Origin: a virus
Taxonomy: Duplodnaviria; Heunggongvirae; Uroviricota; Caudoviricetes
Direction: 5' to 3' (one strand)
Virus record (IMG/VR): IMGVR_UViG_2778261122_000008
DNA length: 8,652 nucleotides
Shown here in pieces: positions 1 to 8,652 of the stretch (position 1 is the first letter of the stretch; each line of letters starts with the position of its first letter). The notes under the pieces were generated by a model. That model ran no database searches, was not told where the DNA came from, and saw nothing but the letters and a program-made list of their open reading frames with translations. The position numbers and the translations under genes were made by a program.

Positions 1-120
1 CAGATAAAGCAAGTACAGCACTTCCTGCTTTACGGGTAGAAGATTTGAATAAGATGATTGGACTTCCTTCCGAGGTCGCATAATCGTCCTTTATTTTTGG
101 CATAAACAACAGAGGCGAAG

Positions 121-318
121 ATGTTGACAGTTGGTAAGTCATATTCAACTAAAAATGGAAAGATATTTAGTTGTGAAAAAGATATTGGAGAAATAGACAC
201 TATCTTTCCATTTGGTGGATGGGTATACAATTCTGATGGAAGCAAAGACAGATTTGCATATTACACCAGAGGAGGTACTTATAAACTAACCAAATCAGAA
301 TATGATTTAATTATTTAG
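121..318 (+). CDS. Hypothetical small protein (65 aa) in a low-GC cassette
   Basis: ORF with GAGG 8 nt upstream of the ATG. GC is about 32% by hand count, against about 47-50% in neighbouring phage genes. Followed by a hairpin and a terminator. No family recognised. Confidence 0.45.
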   Translation: MLTVGKSYSTKNGKIFSCEKDIGEIDTIFPFGGWVYNSDGSKDRFAYYTRGGTYKLTKSEYDLII

Positions 319-330
319 CACAGAGAAGCA

Positions 331-362
331 CTGTGTATTCATTCCAACGAGTGAATACACGG
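331..362 (+). repeat. Perfect 9-bp inverted repeat (GTGTATTCA / TGAATACAC) with a 10-nt spacer; no T-tract
   Basis: Read directly: arms at 333..341 and 352..360, extendable by C331-G362. It is followed by GGAGCAATG rather than a U-run, so it is not a canonical intrinsic terminator. Confidence 0.45.
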
Positions 363-422
363 AGCAATGTCGCTCGTAACTAAACAGGAGCCGACTTGTT
401 CTGATTATTGGAAATCTTCTTT

Positions 423-448
423 GCCCTCCAGTGTGAGGGCCTTTTTAT
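423..448 (+). terminator. Rho-independent terminator candidate
   Basis: GCCCTC (423..428), loop CAGTGT, GAGGGC (435..440), then CTTTTTAT. It lies inside the N-terminal part of the track ORF 408..683, which argues that gene really starts at 513. Confidence 0.6.
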
Positions 449-512
449 ATGCATACCAATAACGCTTCACTCGAGGCGTTTTCGTTATGCAATCAAACAG
501 AAGGAGCATCCT

Positions 513-683
513 ATGCAACAGTTCGCTATTGCAGGGGCGGCATCGGTTCGCCCTTTCAACCCGATTTTATCGGTACAGCATTCACGAAAAAATATTTTAA
601 CCGGAGCAGACTTTAAACAACCAAGAATGAAAAGTTTGCTCGAAAAGCTTTGGGATATTTTGAAACAACAAGGCCGTCCATGA
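513..683 (+). CDS. Hypothetical small phage protein (56 aa)
   Basis: Internal ATG of track ORF 408..683 with AAGGAG 6 nt upstream. Lies downstream of the terminator at 423..448. Its stop overlaps the next start (ATGA at 680..683). Confidence 0.45.
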   Translation: MQQFAIAGAASVRPFNPILSVQHSRKNILTGADFKQPRMKSLLEKLWDILKQQGRP

Positions 684-787
684 GTTTTACAGATAACTGG
701 TCAGACGAAGAATTCATTCGTCAGATGAACAAAATGCTCAATCAGCACAAAGAACAGGAGAAAGATGATGATTCTGACTCTGAATGA
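680..787 (+). CDS. Possible very small acidic protein (35 aa)
   Basis: Hand-translated ORF MSFTDNWSDEEFIRQMNKMLNQHKEQEKDDDSDSE. Its start is ATGA-coupled to the upstream stop. It is below the ORF-track size cutoff and overlaps the start of the next gene by 23 nt. Confidence 0.25.
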   Translation: MSFTDNWSDEEFIRQMNKMLNQHKEQEKDDDSDSE

Positions 788-1076
788 TAAGCGTGAAATA
801 TCGCAAATAATCGCAAGTTTTACTGAGGAAGATTACGAACGAATCAACAGTGAAGTTGATCGCCTCTGCAAACGTTGCGACCCAATAAGCGAAATGCTTC
901 GCTCATATAAACCAGATGAACACACTAAGGACGCTATCGACTGGCTGGAAGATGATGACTGTAACTATCAGGAAAAAGCCGCTGAATGGTTCTGGGATGC
1001 AATAACCGAAAGAGTTAAGGCTGAATATGCCTTCGCAATATTCAAACGCAGACACATTTATGGAGAAGCAGCATGA
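765..1076 (+). CDS. Hypothetical acidic phage protein (103 aa) immediately upstream of recT
   Basis: AGGAG upstream (start could be ATG 765 or 768). Stop overlaps the recT start (ATGA at 1073..1076). Rich in Asp/Glu, net negative by hand count. No family recognised. Confidence 0.6.
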   Translation: MMILTLNDKREISQIIASFTEEDYERINSEVDRLCKRCDPISEMLRSYKPDEHTKDAIDWLEDDDCNYQEKAAEWFWDAITERVKAEYAFAIFKRRHIYGEAA

Positions 1077-1984
1077 GCAATATCGTTGAATTCGTTAAAC
1101 AGCAGGAGCAGTTATTCTGCGGGGCATTGACTGAACAGACGGTGACATGGGCTAAGGAAAGCCAGTTTGCAATTCAGTATTTCCAGAAAAATGATTACCT
1201 GGCTAAAACGGCACTGGCAAATCCAACCAGCGCACAGAACGCCATCATCAATGTTGCGGCGATCGGCATCACCTTAAACCCGGCTAGCAAACTGGCTTAT
1301 CTGGTTCCGCGCGACGGCATGGTGTGCCTTGATATCAGTTATATGGGATTGCTCCATATTGCAATGGAGTCTGGTGTTATCTCATGGGGTCAGGCAAAAC
1401 TTGTTCATGCTAACGATACCTATGAGTCAAACGGGCTTGATAAAGCACCAACCCATAAATACAACGCCTTCGGTGATCGTGGTGATATCGTTGGCGTTTA
1501 CTGCACAGTTAAGACGCCAGCAGGTGATTATCTAACGGAAGAGATGAGTCTGGCTGAAATTGAGGCTGTAAGGAAAACAAGCAAGGCGGCATTCAGCGAT
1601 AAAGGACCATGGGTAAATCACTGGAATGAGATGGCGCGAAAGACGGTCGTAAAGCGTGCAAGCAAGTATTGGCCTAAGGCATCACGTCTTGATAGTGCTA
1701 TTCACGTACTAAACGAAGAAGAAGGTGTGTGGACTGAACCAGTTATGCCGCACAAATCAGAGGAAGATATCCGCGAAGATGAACGGAAACGCCAGCAGGA
1801 AATAACGGATAAAGCACAACTTCTTTGTGATGAAATGGCTCAGGCTGAAAACATGGATGATTTGAAGCGATATTTTGCAGAAGCATATCGCCTGACATCT
1901 GGAATGAAATTGCAGCAGAACGTACAAGCCATTTACATAGAATGCAAAGCGAAACTGGAGGTTGCCAGTGAGCAAACTGTATGA
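1073..1984 (+). CDS. recT: RecT-family single-strand annealing protein (phage recombinase)
   Basis: 303-aa translation. The segment GPWVNHWNEMARKTVVKRASKYWP closely resembles the conserved RecT core as I recall it from Rac RecT (GPWVTHWEEMAKKT...KYLP). GGAG 7 nt upstream of ATG. Confidence 0.85.
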   Translation: MSNIVEFVKQQEQLFCGALTEQTVTWAKESQFAIQYFQKNDYLAKTALANPTSAQNAIINVAAIGITLNPASKLAYLVPRDGMVCLDISYMGLLHIAMESGVISWGQAKLVHANDTYESNGLDKAPTHKYNAFGDRGDIVGVYCTVKTPAGDYLTEEMSLAEIEAVRKTSKAAFSDKGPWVNHWNEMARKTVVKRASKYWPKASRLDSAIHVLNEEEGVWTEPVMPHKSEEDIREDERKRQQEITDKAQLLCDEMAQAENMDDLKRYFAEAYRLTSGMKLQQNVQAIYIECKAKLEVASEQTV

Positions 1985-2450
1985 AATAGCCAATGAATAC
2001 GCAAAGCTGATGGATTCAGATTTAGAGCCAGAGATGATTGCTGACACAATAGAAGGAATGGAAGGAGAATTTACCGATAAAATAGAGCAACTTCTTGCCA
2101 TTATTAAAAATGAATCTGGTTATGCTGAACGCCTCAAGGACGAGGCAAAGTCACTGAATGAACGAGCAGCAGTAATTCAAAATAAGATTGACAGCATTAT
2201 GGCGTATATAGCGTCATCGCTTGAAATGGTTGGCAAGAAAAAGATTCGAGCAGGTATTCACCAGGTAACAATCCGCAAACCGTCAGAAACTGTAGAAATA
2301 ATCGACTCAAGCGCCCTTCCTCCTGAATACGTTGAGTTTGAAACGACAATTAAAGCTGACAAACTGGCAATCAAACACCAACTAAAAGCAGGAATAAATA
2401 TCCCCGGCGCTCAACTCAAAGTTGGGAAACCTTCACTTCTTATCAAATAA
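1968..2450 (+). CDS. Sipho_Gp157-like protein (recombination-module accessory protein)
   Basis: GTG start with GGAGG 6 nt upstream (the track begins at TTG 1962). N-terminus (M)SKLYEIANEY and C-terminus ...NIPGAQLKVGKPSLLIK match my recollection of the Gp157 family, which often sits beside RecT/Erf genes. Confidence 0.6.
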   Translation: MSKLYEIANEYAKLMDSDLEPEMIADTIEGMEGEFTDKIEQLLAIIKNESGYAERLKDEAKSLNERAAVIQNKIDSIMAYIASSLEMVGKKKIRAGIHQVTIRKPSETVEIIDSSALPPEYVEFETTIKADKLAIKHQLKAGINIPGAQLKVGKPSLLIK

Positions 2451-2461
2451 CGGTATCTCCT

Positions 2462-2776
2462 ATGAAAAAGACTCCATGGGAGAAATGGGAAGTCGATTTC
2501 TTGCGCGAAGTGGCGGCGACAATGCCAGTTGAAGTTATCGCTGAAAAACTGGAAAGGACTGAAAAAGCAGTAATGGCGAAAGCAACAAGGATTGGCGCTG
2601 ACATTGTTAGCCGACTTCGTGGAAGACGCTGGACAAGAGCCGAAGTATCACTTTTCGGTAAGTTCTCCGCAGAAGAAATAGCAATTGCAACCTGCCGCTC
2701 AATTTATTCAGTAAGAGCTATGCGATACAAGCTAAAAAAACTCGATGAAGAAAGAGCAGGCATACGAATAAATTAA
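2462..2776 (+). CDS. Hypothetical DNA-binding protein with two tandem HTH-like repeats
   Basis: 104 aa. Internal duplication: WEKWEVDFLREV..PVEVIAEKLERTEKAVMAKATRIG versus RRWTRAEVSLFGKF.AEEIAIATCRSIYSVRAMRYKLKKL. The E-x-I-A...R-[ST]-x-x-[AS]-V pattern resembles sigma-70 region 4 / LuxR / Myb-type HTH. Confidence 0.6.
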   Translation: MKKTPWEKWEVDFLREVAATMPVEVIAEKLERTEKAVMAKATRIGADIVSRLRGRRWTRAEVSLFGKFSAEEIAIATCRSIYSVRAMRYKLKKLDEERAGIRIN

Positions 2777-2792
2777 CATGGAATAATTAACA

Positions 2793-3074
2793 ATGAAGCT
2801 AAACATCGACCTCGGCAAATACGTTATTACCGGAACCAAACACGACCTGATTCTTAATGAAAGAGGAATTATCAAAGAAGGTGAGAATGCAGGGAAAGAA
2901 ACACTAAGCCGTATCGGTTATTACAGCAAGTTTGAGCATCTGGTTAAAGAGTTATGCAACCGTGAAATCCTGTTATCTCAGGCGCAGACGCTACAGGATA
3001 TTCAGCAGCATATCGAGACTTTAGGTGTGTCACTTAGCATGGCTATTGACCAGTTCGTGGAGAGTAAATCATGA
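2793..3074 (+). CDS. Hypothetical phage protein (93 aa)
   Basis: ORF in the co-directional operon. Its stop overlaps the next start (ATGA at 3071..3074). No family recognised. Confidence 0.55.
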
Positions 3075-3235
3075 GAGGACTTGCATACAATCCCGGCATT
3101 CTTCCGGCAGAAATGATTATTCGCCAACGCGTAAAGCCAATGCCATCGAGAGAGGAATTGCTTAAGAGAAATAGTTTCGGTTATGTTAATGGCAACAAAT
3201 ATCTGAATGCGATGTGGCGGAGTGGGAAGAAATGA
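3071..3235 (+). CDS. Hypothetical small phage protein (54 aa)
   Basis: Hand-translated [61 protein letters not shown]-coupled at both ends (3071 and 3232). Below the ORF-track cutoff. Confidence 0.4.
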
Positions 3236-3762
3236 AACAAATGTCACTAATTGAGATGGATGGATTTCTGAAAGGTAAATGCATCCCAAGTGATTTAAAG
3301 GTTAACGAAACAAACGCTGAATATCTGGTGCGTAAATTTGCTGAAGCGCAGGCCAAATGCGCGGCGCTGGCGGCGGAGAATGCTGGGCTGAAACATGCAA
3401 TGGCTGTAACTCTTGAGCATGTGTCGGTCACGGATGCAGGGCAGGCCGGAGTTGCTGCAATGATTATCAACGATGCCCTGCACCACAGCGAAACTCCAGC
3501 CACCGATGCTTTTCTGGCTGAAATTCGTGCGGCGGCTCGCAACGAGGGGATTAACTATACCGCAAGCCGTCTTGCTGCTGCTTTCAACCACGGATTTATC
3601 AATAAGTCTTTACGTGAAGTTTTCGACGTTACGCGCATGATTCTGTCAGCGAAAGAAGAGTTGGCTAATGAAGCGCATCCGATTGATGGCCTGTCTGGTG
3701 AATATGCGGAGAAATCCCTTGAAGAATGGGCGGAACAGATTCGCAAAGGAGGCAAGCAGTGA
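3232..3762 (+). CDS. Hypothetical phage protein (176 aa)
   Basis: In-frame ATG at 3232 within track ORF 3214..3762, overlapping the upstream stop (ATGA). No confidently recognised domain. Confidence 0.6.
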
Positions 3763-4082
3763 GCAAAATGACAATCACAAAACAACGAGTAGAAAAAATC
3801 ATATATCGCCATGAAATGGGATTGAACAGCGATGTCACTTCCGAAGAGGTTTATGACCTGGCTGTACTGGCGCTGAATTTATCAAATATCGTAAACCTCA
3901 AGCGATACGAGCTTGATATGGATGGTTGTGACTCGTTCGGTCAGGATTGTGGCGCTGACATGACTGAAGATTCTGATGGTGCTTACGTCCTGTTTGATGA
4001 CGTGGTTAAGTTGTTTGAGTTTGATACAACCACTCAGAAGCCAGAAAGCCCAGCAAAGGAGGCAACCAGTGAGCAAGATTGA
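3759..4082 (+). CDS. Hypothetical phage protein (~107 aa), GTG start
   Basis: AAGGAGG 6 nt upstream of GTG 3759, which overlaps the upstream stop (GTGA). An alternative in-frame ATG is at 3768. Shares the junction motif CAGTGAGCAA with the starts at 1968 and 4069. Confidence 0.55.
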   Translation: MSKMTITKQRVEKIIYRHEMGLNSDVTSEEVYDLAVLALNLSNIVNLKRYELDMDGCDSFGQDCGADMTEDSDGAYVLFDDVVKLFEFDTTTQKPESPAKEATSEQD

Positions 4083-4578
4083 CTATCAGGCACTGCGTGA
4101 AGCGGCACAGAACGCGAAAAATTTAGGTGGGATTAAGAATTACAAGCGAGGCGAGCAAGCTGTTGCCGAATTTAAGTCCTTGATAACGCCACATATTGTG
4201 CTGGCGCTTCTGGAAGAACGGGAAAGAAACCAGCAATACATCAAACGCCGCGACCAGGAGAACGAGGATATTGCGCTTACGGTAGGGAAGCTGCGTGTTG
4301 AGCTTGAAGCCGTGCAGAAGACATCAGCGGCACGAATCGAAGCTATAGACCGCACTCACAAAATGTTCCAGCGTGAAAAAGACCGAGCCGATGCCGCAGA
4401 GAAGTGCATAGCAGAACTGTCTGCTAGCCACAGCAAATTGCGCGACACAATGGCTGGCATCCACAACACAATCCGAATGGATGGCGGCTATACGCCACTG
4501 GCAGCAATCCTTAACGCTGCTAAACGCGCATATGAAGAATCAGCAAGCGCAGCTGGCATTCGCATCAAAGGAGAGTGA
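4069..4578 (+). CDS. Ea22-like (Ead/Ea22 family) protein, coiled-coil rich
   Basis: GTG start with AAGGAGG 6 nt upstream. N-terminal IDYQALREAAQNA and ITPHIVLALLEERE resemble motifs I recall from enterobacterial Ead/Ea22-like proteins. Position between the recombination module and xis matches lambda ea22. Confidence 0.55.
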   Translation: MSKIDYQALREAAQNAKNLGGIKNYKRGEQAVAEFKSLITPHIVLALLEERERNQQYIKRRDQENEDIALTVGKLRVELEAVQKTSAARIEAIDRTHKMFQREKDRADAAEKCIAELSASHSKLRDTMAGIHNTIRMDGGYTPLAAILNAAKRAYEESASAAGIRIKGE

Positions 4579-4579
4579 T

Positions 4580-5011
4580 ATGACCACTATAACCGATAAG
4601 AAACAGTATCCAGGCGAGCAATATCTTAATGAGCTGATCACCAACATAGAGTTTGCTGCAAGGGCACCAGTTGAAGTCGTGAGAGCGATGGCAGCAGAGC
4701 TACAGAAGCGGCGCGAAGCTGATAGTGCCGAACCTGTAAGCCAAACTTACAAGTTGAACGAGCTATCTGGCAACTCTCCGGTAACTCCGGATAGTTGGAT
4801 AAGCTGTAGTGAGCGAATGCCGAACGATAAACAGTATGTTTGGTGTTGGGGTAAGTCTTACGGCTGGACTGAGTGCAATACCTTCGAAGGGTATTACGAT
4901 TGGTCGAGAAACAAATGGTGGGCAGTTACTGACGATGGGGAAGAACCGGCATCGAAAGTAACTCACTGGATGCCGCTACCAGAACCGCCGCAGGAGGTTA
5001 ACCGTGGCTAA
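4580..5011 (+). CDS. DUF551-domain phage protein
   Basis: ATG with GGAG 6 nt upstream. The C-terminal WISCSERMPNDKQYVWCW...KVTHWMPLPEPP matches the DUF551 hallmark (W..ERLP...THWMPLPEPP) as I remember it. Confidence 0.7.
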   Translation: MTTITDKKQYPGEQYLNELITNIEFAARAPVEVVRAMAAELQKRREADSAEPVSQTYKLNELSGNSPVTPDSWISCSERMPNDKQYVWCWGKSYGWTECNTFEGYYDWSRNKWWAVTDDGEEPASKVTHWMPLPEPPQEVNRG

Positions 5012-5110
5012 CCTGCAACTTGCCGTTAAAGGTAAATAACAATCCTCGCACTCGCGGGGATTTCTTTTATCTGAACTCGCTACGGCGGGTTTTGTTTTGT
5101 GGAGATGATT

Positions 5111-5410
5111 ATGGCCTGTTCAACATTCAACCCTCTAACGTTACAGAAATACCAGCCAGACCCTGAAGATTTATGCTCACTGTGTGGCGGAATTCATGGT
5201 AAAGCCGCCATGATCGAATGTAAGGACAAAATCCACATATGCCTTAATTGCGTTGATGTCCTCGTTGATATCAAAAATGAGAGAGAAGATAAAAAGCGTA
5301 GCGAGGCTGTTCGTGCCTTAGATTCATGGATGCGAGATGGGTATAGTGCTGCGCAAATTTATGACTTAGCAATATCAAAAGGCGAAATACCTGGAGTACG
5401 CATCGAATAA
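5111..5410 (+). CDS. Hypothetical Zn-ribbon protein (CxxC...CxxC), positional analogue of lambda ea8.5
   Basis: ATG 5111 with GGAG 6 nt upstream (the track begins at GTG 5099). Cys pairs CSLCGG and CLNC. Followed by a strong terminator. Confidence 0.6.
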   Translation: MACSTFNPLTLQKYQPDPEDLCSLCGGIHGKAAMIECKDKIHICLNCVDVLVDIKNEREDKKRSEAVRALDSWMRDGYSAAQIYDLAISKGEIPGVRIE

Positions 5411-5450
5411 GACATAACCGATATTCGAATTGAAGAACTGAAAGAACACC

Positions 5451-5473
5451 AAGCCGCCTGATGGCGGTTTTTT
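5451..5473 (+). terminator. Rho-independent terminator
   Basis: CCGCC (5454..5458), loop TGAT, GGCGG (5463..5467), then TTTTTT (5468..5473). Confidence 0.7.
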
Positions 5474-5487
5474 ATTGGGGGTAGTAG

Positions 5488-5703
5488 ATGGCTGCAATTC
5501 ACATTGCATCAATAACATGCAATGCAATTCAGATAGTTGCTTGCATTATCTTTGTTTTCCAAACCCTTCGCTCCCGACGATATTCTCCAGCAATTAACCG
5601 ACATCCTGCACAGGTTGAAGCCGTCAGGATGGCTATAGAGTTACGAAATGAGATGAATAAGGCATTAATGGAGATAGAGAAACCATTCACTGACAAACAT
5701 TAA
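5488..5703 (+). CDS. Questionable small ORF (71 aa, hydrophobic N-terminus); may be a regulatory region instead
   Basis: ORF flanked by terminators at 5451..5473 and 5726..5754. Weak RBS (GGGGG). Its first 60 nt carry a dense TGCAAT/ATTGCA inverted-repeat array, so coding status is uncertain. Confidence 0.3.
   Translation: MAAIHIASITCNAIQIVACIIFVFQTLRSRRYSPAINRHPAQVEAVRMAIELRNEMNKALMEIEKPFTDKH
5493..5528. promoter_or_regulatory. Candidate protein-binding array: four TGCAAT/ATTGCA hexamers forming two overlapping inverted repeats
   Basis: Read directly: TGCAAT 5493..5498, ATTGCA 5503..5508, TGCAAT 5518..5523 and 5523..5528. Inverted repeats are TGCAAT-tcac-ATTGCA and CATTGCAT-caataac-ATGCAATG. 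Confidence 0.35.
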
Positions 5704-5725
5704 GAGTGGAAATAGAAATCACACC

Positions 5726-5754
5726 GCCTCACACTCGATGAGGCATTTTCATTT
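5726..5754 (+). terminator. Rho-independent terminator candidate
   Basis: GCCTCA (5726..5731), loop CACTCGA, TGAGGC (5739..5744), then ATTTTCATTT. Confidence 0.5.
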
Positions 5755-5809
5755 ATCAAGATATCCAGACCTACCGCAATAATACCAACTCAATAAATGG
5801 AGATTCCAG

Positions 5810-6157
5810 GTGGAAGAAGAAATCTTCACTCGTGAAGAAGCAGCGTCGTATCTGAAGGTAGACAAAGGAACTATCACGCAGTGGATACGAAGTGGACGAC
5901 TTCAGGCCGCAAAGATAAATCCAGATAAACCTAAAAGCCCATATCGCATTTGCAAGTCAGACTGCATTGCGGCGCTTAAGTCTGTGAGACACAATAGCGC
6001 GGTGAATGCGGTTGATGTGCAGGAGGTTAAAGCATGTCAATCAAACTACGCGGTGGCACGTGGCACTGCGATTTCGTCGCGCCAGATGGATCAAGAGTTA
6101 GACGCTCTCTTGAAACATCGGACAAGAGGCAAGCGCAAGAACTTCACGATCGTCTGA
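5810..6157 (+). CDS. xis: Excisionase-like DNA-binding protein (HTH, Xis/AlpA type)
   Basis: GTG start with GGAG upstream. N-terminal FTREEAASYLKVDKGTITQWIRSGRLQAAKI is a typical excisionase-family HTH. Sits immediately upstream of int and overlaps it by 124 nt; the true C-terminus is uncertain. Confidence 0.6.
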   Translation: MEEEIFTREEAASYLKVDKGTITQWIRSGRLQAAKINPDKPKSPYRICKSDCIAALKSVRHNSAVNAVDVQEVKACQSNYAVARGTAISSRQMDQELDALLKHRTRGKRKNFTIV

Positions 6158-7194
6158 AAGCAGAAGCGTGGAGAGTAAAAAATCTCGGAGAATCACCGAA
6201 AAAGCTATTCAAGGAAGCCTGCATACGGTGGCTGCGTGAGAAATCGGATAAGAAGTCCATTGATGATGACAAGAGCATTATATCGTTCTGGATGTTGCAC
6301 TTCAGAGAAACCATTCTCTCTGACATAACAACAGAAAAAATAATGGAGGCGGTAGACGGGATGGAAAACCGCCGCCATCGCCTGAACTGGGAAATGAGCC
6401 GGGACAGGTGTTTGCGGCTTGGCAAGCCAGTGCCGGAGTATAAACCAAAGCTGGCAAGCAAAGGAACGAAGACGCGGCATCTGGCAATACTTCGCGCTAT
6501 TCTCAATATGACTGTTGAATGGGGATGGATTGACAGGGCACCCAAAATATCAACACCACGCGTTAAGAATGGACGAATCAGATGGCTTACAGAGGAGGAA
6601 TCTAAGCGCCTGTTTGCAGAAATTGCTCCTCATTTCTTCCCTGTGGTCATGTTTGCAATCACGACAGGCCTTCGCCGTTCCAACGTTACAGACCTTGAAT
6701 GGTCACAGGTCGATCTGGATAAGAAAATGGCATGGATGCACCCTGATGAAACAAAAGCTGGCAATGCGATCGGAGTTCCTCTTAACGAAACCGCATGCCA
6801 GATATTAAGAAAACAGCAGGGTCTCCATAAGAGATGGGTATTTGTCCACACCAAACCTGCCTACCGAAGCGACGGAACAAAAACAGCAGCGGTAAGGAAG
6901 ATGAGAACCGACAGCAACAAGGCATGGAAGGGAGCGTTAAAGCGGGCAGGCATTAGCAACTTCCGCTTCCATGACCTGAGGCATACCTGGGCAAGCTGGC
7001 TGGTTCAGTCCGGTGTCTCTCTTCTTGCACTTAAAGAGATGGGAGGATGGGAAACTCTCGAAATGGTTCAAAGATACGCCCACCTTTCAGCCGGGCATCT
7101 CACCGAGCACGCTAGCAAAATCGATGCGATTATAAGTCGCAATGGCACAAATACGGCACAAGAGGAGAACGTGGTTTACTTAAATGTGAGGTAA
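6034..7194 (+). CDS. int: Tyrosine-type site-specific integrase
   Basis: 386 aa with AGGAGG 7 nt upstream. C-terminal catalytic signature TGLRRSNV...HDLRHTWAS...LEMVQRYAHL (R...HxxR...Y). Ends 14 bp from the tRNA 3' end. Confidence 0.9.
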   Translation: MSIKLRGGTWHCDFVAPDGSRVRRSLETSDKRQAQELHDRLKAEAWRVKNLGESPKKLFKEACIRWLREKSDKKSIDDDKSIISFWMLHFRETILSDITTEKIMEAVDGMENRRHRLNWEMSRDRCLRLGKPVPEYKPKLASKGTKTRHLAILRAILNMTVEWGWIDRAPKISTPRVKNGRIRWLTEEESKRLFAEIAPHFFPVVMFAITTGLRRSNVTDLEWSQVDLDKKMAWMHPDETKAGNAIGVPLNETACQILRKQQGLHKRWVFVHTKPAYRSDGTKTAAVRKMRTDSNKAWKGALKRAGISNFRFHDLRHTWASWLVQSGVSLLALKEMGGWETLEMVQRYAHLSAGHLTEHASKIDAIISRNGTNTAQEENVVYLNVR

Positions 7195-7225
7195 CTTATT
7201 GATTTAAATGGTGCCGATAATAGGA
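7195..7225. other. Probable prophage attachment junction (att core overlapping the tRNA-Thr 3' end)
   Basis: Inferred from the int-tRNA arrangement. The core cannot be delimited without the other prophage end or an empty-site sequence. Confidence 0.3.
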
Positions 7226-7284
7226 GTCGAACCTACGACCTTCGCATTACGAATGCGCTGCTCTACCAACTGAGCTATATCGGC
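7209..7284 (-). tRNA. thrW: tRNA-Thr (anticodon CGU)
   Basis: The reverse complement reads GCCGATATAGCTCAGTTGGTAGAGCAGCGCATTCGTAATGCGAAGGTCGTAGGTTCGACTCCTATTATCGGCACCA (76 nt). It has a 7-bp acceptor stem GCCGATA/TATCGGC, a D-arm, the anticodon loop TTCGTAA (CGT), a T-arm GGTTCGACTCC and an encoded CCA. Matches E. coli thrW as I recall it. Confidence 0.93.
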
Positions 7285-7398
7285 CCTGAAAGGACATGTT
7301 CACGAACGTGAATCACGGTGGACAAGGTTAAAACTAACCGGGCGATGCGTCAATGGCCTTGTGAATCAAATGGCTACTTTTGCATCACCCGGTTTTAT

Positions 7399-8652
7399 TT
7401 ACGCACGAATGGTGTAATCACCAATGCCGATCCACTTATAAGTGGTCAGAGCTTCCAGCCCCATTGGGCCGCGCGCGTGGAGTTTTTGTGTGCTTACCGC
7501 AACTTCCGCCCCCAGTCCAAACTGGCCGCCGTCGGTAAAACGCGTAGAGGCGTTAACGTAAACAGCGGAGGAATCCACTTCGTTAACAAAACGCTGGGCG
7601 TTGCGCATATCGCGGGTCAGGATCGCATCGGAGTGTTGCGTGCCGTGTTCACGAATATGGGCAATGGCGTCATCCAGATCGCTAACGATTTTGACGTTCA
7701 AATCTAATGACAGAAACTCATCGTCATACTCTTCGGCTTTAACAGCCACCACCTTCGCGGGGCCTGCCTGCAACTGCGCCAGCGCGGCTGCATCAGCGTG
7801 TAACGTCACGCCGCTTTCCGCCATTTGTTTGCTTAATGCGGGCAGGAAGCTATCAGCGATGTTTTTATTCACCAGCAACGTTTCTACCGTATTACATGTG
7901 CTCGGACGCTGAGTTTTCGCGTTGACAATTACTTTCAGGGCTTCAGCGATCTCTGCACTTTCATCAACGTAAATATGGCATACGCCTATACCGCCTGTGA
8001 TCACCGGGATTGTCGACTGCTCGCGGCACAGTTTATGCAAACCAGCCCCACCGCGCGGGATCAGCATGTCGATGTATTTATCCATACGCAGCATTTCACT
8101 GACCAGCGCACGGTCAGGATTATCAATTGCCTGCACGGCACCCGCCGGTAAGCCGCAGGATTTCAGGGCGTCCTGAATCACCGCTACCGTTGCAGCGTTA
8201 GTGCGACAGGTTTCTTTGCCGCCGCGCAGGATCACCGCGTTACCGGTTTTCAGGCACAGGGAAGCAACATCAACCGTCACGTTCGGGCGCGCTTCATAAA
8301 TCACGCCAATCACCCCCAGCGGTACGCGACGACGCTCAAGACGCAGGCCGCTGTCCAGTACGCCGCCATCGATTACCTGCCCCACCGGATCGGCGAGATT
8401 GCACACCTGGCGCACATCGTCGGCAATGCCTTTCAGCCGTGCGGGCGTCAGTGCCAGACGGTCAAGCATCGCTTCGCTAAGGCCATTGGCACACGCGTCT
8501 GCAACATCCTGCGCGTTAGCGTTGAGGATACTTTCGCTTTGTGCTTCCAGTTCATCGGCGATTTTTTCCAGCACACGATTTTTTTCGCGGCTGGAGAGTT
8601 GCGCTAATTTATACGAGGCTTGCTTCGCGGCAATGCCCATTTGTTCCAGCAT
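7399..8652 (-). CDS. proA: Gamma-glutamyl phosphate reductase (glutamate-5-semialdehyde dehydrogenase)
   Basis: The 417-aa translation starts [21 protein letters not shown] and ends DYTIRA, recognisable as enterobacterial ProA. The start codon is at the window edge and the stop is TAA at 7399..7401. Confidence 0.95.

Follow-up and report, generated by a model that had tools for sequence, protein, structure and literature searches.

The 8,652-nucleotide stretch of Caudoviricetes DNA analyzed here (IMG/VR record IMGVR_UViG_2778261122_000008; hereafter the window) carries close to its left edge a short AT-rich open reading frame of 65 codons (ORF65, 121..318, + strand), which is followed by an inverted repeat and a terminator. 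The original prediction, made from the letters alone, regarded this segment as a laterally acquired cargo insert, or moron, that was closed by the hairpin and the terminator and probably truncated by the edge of the window. The locus raises the questions of where the insert begins and ends, whether the structured elements belong to it, and when and for what purpose its small protein might be made.

The window covers the N-antiterminated early-left (pL) operon of a lambdoid prophage at thrW/proA. ORF scans and family searches indicated that its + strand reads toward the attachment end of the prophage. A contig of assembly GCA_932750705.1 matched positions 1..8318 with 100% identity, and a 99.97%-identical contig extended leftward with cI, a P63C-domain gene, N, Nmad5 (207 aa) and ORF65 in that left-to-right order, followed by PreS/tL2a (an sRNA and its terminator, described below), a second terminator, cIII and the recT module. 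Between cIII and a 103-aa ORF, the position of Kil is taken by a small ORF (680..787); genes for RecT, Gp157, DUF5405, Ead/Ea22 and DUF551 proteins then fill the stretch before the integrase (6034..7194), which is followed by tRNA-Thr(CGU) (7209..7284, − strand) and, beyond it, by proA, also on the − strand. The 311-aa P63C-domain gene (locus L029, 5584-6519) sits between cI and N, at the position of rexAB in lambda; it could be a lysogen-expressed cargo gene.

The base composition of ORF65 was deviant, as had been claimed. The frame 121..318 contained 30.8% GC (GC3, 21%), compared to about 32% in the earlier estimate, and a windowed scan reproduced the drop: it was the lowest-GC 198-bp window in 1..7300, the prophage part, with equally low windows making up 0.06%. 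The estimate for the surroundings was correct for proA (55.0%) but too high for the neighboring phage genes, which had been placed at 47-50% and measured 42-46% (cIII, 42.7%; the 103-aa ORF, 42.0%; recT, 46.1%).

The open frame that runs in from the left edge, from position 3 to a TAA at 81..83 (+ strand), had been interpreted as a sign that the cassette was cut by the window. The frame exists, and it corresponds to the final 26 codons of a gene for an Nmad5-family "nucleotide modification" protein: its translation matched Pfam PF18757 (Nmad5) at profile positions 186-206 of 206 (E = 3e-5), phrog_1965 also matched, and leftward extension yielded the full gene of 207 aa and 39.7% GC, located directly after N (L029:7340-7963) and also present in locus L001. 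This gene is a separate module, and the left end of the cassette lies inside the window, at 113/114. Phage mutations that escape the Tmn defence system are reported to map to Nmad5 (2025 conference report, PMC12908700). A terminator-like hairpin with two alleles spans the Nmad5 stop codon (72..91); with its U-U mismatch, the window allele GGTCG/CGTCC is weak (−4.9 kcal/mol, z = −0.27), and L001, L026, and L027 share a stable allele, GGCCG/CGGCC (−11 kcal/mol).

The boundaries of the insert were obtained by alignment with the prophage of E. coli H22 and with lambda. The H22 prophage, otherwise near-identical and without ORF65, matched window positions 1..113 and 328..729 at 99%, and both H22 and lambda contained 9 nt, ATAAACACT, where the window has 114..327. 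The mobile unit is thus 114..327 (+ strand), a cassette of 214 bp and 32.7% GC that comprises the tail of a Shine-Dalgarno sequence, ORF65, and 9 nt. Its left flank, a conserved 26-nt segment (88..113, + strand), was 96% identical to the lambda sequence just downstream of ral and was common to empty-site prophages and to ORF65 copies located after Ral, Nmad5, or an 83-aa ORF. Lambda represents the empty configuration, in which 88..113 and 328..450 together form the ral-ea10 intergenic spacer at 96-98% identity. The empty junction was found in at least 1293 of the 5426 complete E. coli genomes that formed the base of the survey.

In L026 and L027, two further E. coli prophages in which the Nmad5 gene is the same, other two-gene cassettes occupied the identical slot with identical junctions; their ATG stands at the same position, after a conserved GAGGnnAAnATG, and their stop codon abuts GCACTGTGTATTC. 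The alternative cassettes (L026:1621-1943 and L027:1621-2117) encode 44 plus 62 aa and 98 plus 67 aa, respectively, all of them hypothetical proteins. The slot is located 34 nt upstream of the PreS sRNA gene. Its two conserved flanks, the 26-nt segment before it and the PreS region after it, probably provide the homology through which lambdoid phages swap cassettes. The ORF65 locus is a single-gene modular exchange between conserved flanks, and we hold this anatomy of the locus with high confidence. The view of a laterally acquired, compositionally deviant insert was therefore borne out, since near-identical prophages precisely lack ORF65 and the gene occurs behind three different upstream genes.

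The comparison with insert-less prophages gave a divided result: the ORF65 segment was not core sequence, but the hairpin and the terminator were kept as backbone without the insert. Both structures lie outside the indel, in a segment (328..450, + strand) that was 97.6% identical over 123 nt to the lambda ral-ea10 region and was present in cassette-less prophages, so they do not close the cassette as had been proposed. The structures themselves had been correctly recognized. The perfect 9-bp inverted repeat, GTGTATTCA (333..341) and TGAATACAC (352..360), extends to a conserved 12-bp stem (333..344 with 349..360, one G.U pair) with a CAAC loop (hairpin 333..360, + strand), and it ends one base before the 5′ end of PreS. 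The hairpin was identical in lambda; the one variant, C344T in L027, keeps the pairing as G.U. The region 319..450 folded with a z of −5.35. The terminator was recovered by a terminator scan at 423..446 (+ strand), with a stem at 423..440 of six pairs, five of them G-C, a 6-nt loop, and a C followed by TTTTT at 442..446. The scan returned 2 sites against 1.0 ± 1.2 expected, a count that alone is not above chance; the site at 423..446 was taken as real because it is homologous to tL2a of lambda, where the U-run is GA plus six U compared to C plus five U here. The record of phage mEpX1 also annotates a rho-independent terminator at the tL2a position.

The segment 362..448 (+ strand), whose 3′ end is formed by this terminator, corresponds to an sRNA of lambda. 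The gene for LPR1, an RNA since renamed PreS, lies between ral and ea10, with tL2a, a terminator of the pL operon, as the 3′ end of the transcript. PreS depends on Hfq, has a length of about 88 nt before and about 68 nt after processing, and is produced in the lytic cycle and not in the lysogen (bioRxiv 10.1101/2024.10.31.621285). The same study demonstrated that PreS activates dnaN translation and represses alaS, and that its deletion cuts the yield of lambda two- to four-fold. With the limits of lambda PreS set by the cloning primers P1107 and P1108 of that study, the window copy was identical at 85 of 88 positions with no gaps, and so belongs among LPR1 homologues as defined there (at least 92% identity to lambda, few gaps). 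The three mismatches are all confined to the tail that follows the terminator stem; the body is identical, and the seed TTGTTCTGATTATTGGAAATC, which contains the M1/M2 mutation sites (around 399..414), is unchanged in the window. By this similarity, the window copy is a homologue of lambda PreS; Hfq binding, lytic expression, and dnaN activation are known for the lambda RNA only and would apply here by homology. A PreS homologue was detected in 2233 of the 5426 E. coli genomes (about 41%), at 3191 places, and was unannotated among the matches listed. A search of Rfam 15 gave no match in the PreS region at E ≤ 1, and only a chance snoRNA match in 1..1200. A 31-codon ATG frame that opens inside PreS (367..462), with GGAG 2 nt before the ATG, is probably untranslated.

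Downstream of tL2a, the window continues with a homologue of the lambda ea10-cIII spacer (451..512, + strand; 79% identical to lambda), which holds a second terminator and the cIII leader. The second terminator was found by the scan as a stem at 461..480 with a T-run (fold z = −4.07), and we take it to be tL2b of the lambda map. The ea10 gene is absent from the window, and tL2a for this reason runs directly into the ea10-cIII spacer. A second exchange slot is located directly after tL2a (450/451), at the position of ea10 in lambda; it is empty in the window and is occupied elsewhere (L003, L006, L007, L009, and L028) by Ea10/DUF2528, a 322-aa "TolA" gene, a 103-aa superinfection-exclusion gene, or a 138-aa hypothetical gene. 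The cIII gene itself (513..683, + strand) encodes 56 aa, matched phrog_550 "CIII" at E = 1e-22, and is annotated at this place in related prophages. In mEpX1 (L005, 2582-2857; window 408..683), a 91-aa "putative cIII" starts upstream of tL2a and runs through it; this call looks over-extended because the 56-aa frame matches the cIII family.

ORF65 is a genuine gene. Its start codon is preceded by a GAGG ribosome-binding site at 112..115, five bases before the ATG, and its close copies differed by nine synonymous codon variants against four non-synonymous ones at three residues; compared to a 69%-identical homologue, the dN/dS was 0.19. An exhaustive profile-free search recovered about 25 small homologues of 53-89 aa and 33-69% identity, whereas a word-indexed protein search returned one 90%-identity cluster only. 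In the family alignment, Y8, R44, G52, and Y54 were invariant and G13, G33, G40, A46, and D62 were near-invariant. The long matches of the exhaustive search, to Rib, SPRY, and leucine-rich repeat proteins, added up weak repeats and were discarded. The Shine-Dalgarno sequence, the codon variation, the low dN/dS, and the conserved small-protein family together indicate a true coding gene. The very short length and the missing annotation in four of six intact E. coli copies might suggest that the frame arose by chance in AT-rich spacer DNA, but the purifying selection, the retention of motifs in homologues down to 33% identity, the good Shine-Dalgarno sequence, and the confident fold described next leave that reading extremely improbable and effectively refuted.

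The phrog_15499 profile matched ORF65 over residues 1-65 of 65 (E = 4.4e-48), and all 26 aligned homologues matched it as well. ORF65 is thus a full member of a family that has no annotation, Pfam model, or solved structure. With the 26-sequence alignment, AlphaFold predicted an SH3-like small beta-barrel at a pLDDT of 97.6, compared to 50 from the single sequence. The superfamilies considered for it were the SH3-like, Tudor, and KOW small beta-barrels; Foldseek of the model gave no significant match in the PDB, and the matches in BFVD were uncharacterized phage proteins only. No family match for ORF65 was obtained in Pfam or NCBIfam, a Pfam scan of all 26 family members returned noise only, and when the PDB was searched by sequence, with ORF65 alone or with the profile, only chance matches came up. 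None of the PADLOC-DB defence models matched ORF65, Nmad5, or N at E ≤ 1. The defence, anti-defence, or toxin function that had been suggested for the cassette was accordingly not matched by any such family in Pfam, PHROG, PADLOC, or NCBIfam. A literature search with the protein accessions, phrog_15499, and mEpX1/ECOR found nothing on ORF65, and a Genome Research paper on lambdoid phages did not include this gene.

The insert lies close to the 5′ end of PreS, and it could in principle act at the RNA level, by altering the processing, stability, or seed availability of PreS with the ORF being incidental. In the minimum-energy fold, 322..328 at the cassette tail pairs with 416..422, just before the terminator stem, and an 8-nt match to the PreS seed exists. 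However, the duplex energy between seed and ORF was matched by 30% of shuffles, the protein is under purifying selection, and the family is present in phages without PreS; we consider an RNA-level role very improbable. The 8-nt complementarity between the seed and the 3′ end of ORF65 was rejected on the shuffling result. The pairing of AGAGAAG (322..328) with CUUCUUU (416..422) in the fold of 319..450 is impossible in empty-site phages and may be due to chance.

The ORF65 cassette was rare. It was found in 8 of the 5426 E. coli genomes, intact in 6 and 5′-truncated in 2, and also in two distinct cultivable phages, 2G7b and PhiR11_1 with its derivative (4 phage records). In 4 of the 6 complete genomes with an intact copy (H51, H52, H55, and H56), the 65-codon gene was left unannotated by NCBI PGAP. 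The two truncated genomes, CE10 and N32, keep only the 3′ 130 bp of the cassette with the same truncation; in CE10 (L010, 2001-2130), the one examined for this, an IS3-family element abuts the truncation point.

The genes on either side of the cassette varied. Intact ORF65 was preceded by Ral (four loci), by Nmad5 (the window and its relatives), or by the 83-aa ORF (two), and it was followed directly by cIII, or by Ea10/DUF2528, the 322-aa TolA-like gene, or a superinfection-exclusion (Sie) gene. Clustering of the neighboring ORFs over 13 loci revealed no recurrent partner gene; only the backbone genes N, cIII, and kil recurred, and ORF65 is therefore without a dedicated partner, unlike a toxin-antitoxin or other two-gene module. 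The 69%-identical homologue is likewise located between N and cIII. More distant homologues occupied equivalent places: after the repressor gene of a Pseudomonas fulva prophage, beside cro-like genes, and, in larger phages, in early regions of small ORFs near Lar, DNA methylase, or nucleoside deoxyribosyltransferase genes. The last of these settings, together with the position of ORF65 directly after Ral in four loci and after Nmad5 in several, would be consistent with a modulator or specificity factor of the upstream restriction-evasion or DNA-modification gene. Such a partnership is improbable in our estimate: the upstream gene changes among Ral, Nmad5, and the 83-aa ORF while the 26-nt flank stays constant, which indicates that adjacency reflects the slot rather than a gene pair, and no neighbor beyond N, cIII, and kil recurs.

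The expression of ORF65 bears on whether the insert is a classic moron, that is, an autonomous unit with its own promoter and terminator that is expressed from the prophage and provides a defence, exclusion, or toxin function. The atypically low GC, the presence/absence polymorphism at a precise site, and the location in an operon region that also holds lysogen-expressed exclusion genes such as sieB agree with this description. The layout expected of it was not recovered. A simple consensus scan, which could miss a weak or atypical promoter, detected no sigma-70-like promoter on the + strand in 1..120; no terminator lies inside the indel 114..327, and the one downstream is the backbone tL2a/PreS, which is present in empty-site genomes and in lambda. 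ORF65 is moreover co-oriented with pL, and the PADLOC search was without a match. With no PADLOC match, no partner gene, and no sign of expression in the lysogen, a defence or toxin role is unsupported. On this evidence, a classic moron has a low probability.

With no promoter-like site of its own and only a backbone terminator downstream, ORF65 would instead be transcribed from pL after induction or infection, and we infer a pL-driven lytic expression. As a gene downstream of N, it would belong to the delayed-early class and require N read-through of upstream terminators, and its regime would equal that of the adjacent PreS, for which it has been demonstrated experimentally in lambda. Since a promoter-like site, a terminator, and a partner of its own were all missing, the product is probably a delayed-early accessory protein and not a classic moron product.

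The products of this operon interval that have been studied, Ral, cIII, Kil, and Gam, each bind and modulate a host protein. By analogy with these neighbors, an argument from position only, the most likely role of ORF65 is to bind and modulate a host or defence protein; it would then be a solitary early binder and serve as a host-takeover or anti-defence accessory. We give this role a chance slightly short of even. The explanation as a whole, in which a cassette in a mosaic slot stands beside a PreS/tL2a backbone and ORF65 is expressed from pL as a binder of a host or defence protein, seems to us somewhat more probable than not. A broader version, in which phrog_15499 would be a new class of single-domain SH3-like early proteins, carried as a rare exchangeable cassette, that neutralizes a specific host immunity or housekeeping factor and the slot beside PreS would be an anti-defence cassette site, is speculative and rather unlikely. 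Should ORF65 turn out to be an anti-defence factor, further such factors could usefully be sought in the slot. The cultivable phages 2G7b and PhiR11_1 carry ORF65, and a knockout or host-range test is therefore straightforward.

Two consequences follow for the reading of this DNA. By homology, the structured RNA elements do not punctuate the cassette but form a copy, so far without annotation, of a phage sRNA that has been described recently and reprograms DnaN synthesis in the host. The cassette-exchange slot beside PreS is defined to the base, and a rare protein family with a well-folded predicted structure has been identified in it. The RNA elements (PreS/tL2a) were already known, and the protein comes from a catalogued family; the arrangement is an ordinary feature of mosaic phage genomes.

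Compared to lambda, the window is collinear with the ral-ea10 region and shares with it the PreS body, the seed, the 5′ hairpin, and the GC-rich stem with its U-run. The two differ in that the gene upstream of the slot is ral in lambda and Nmad5 in the window, that lambda has 9 nt where the window has the 214 bp with ORF65, and that lambda has ea10, which the window lacks. Among the genes between N and cIII in lambda, ral, ea10, sieB, and orf28 are non-essential accessory genes, and ORF65 resembles them in being located in the same interval, small, dispensable-looking, and variably present; it assorts independently between lambdoid phages and, like ral and ea10, would be co-transcribed from pL. 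It has no sequence or family relationship to these four genes, however, and is much rarer (8/5426) and much more AT-rich.

A moron in the sense of Hendrix and Juhala is reportedly an autonomous, lysogen-expressed cargo unit of lambdoid phages. ORF65 shares with morons the precise absence from close relatives and the deviant base composition. It differs from them in that the insert showed neither a promoter nor a terminator of its own and that the terminator next to it is already there in empty sites; ORF65 is therefore not expected to be expressed while the prophage is repressed. A more fitting description of the insert is an exchangeable accessory gene of the delayed-early class in the lambda N-cIII interval.
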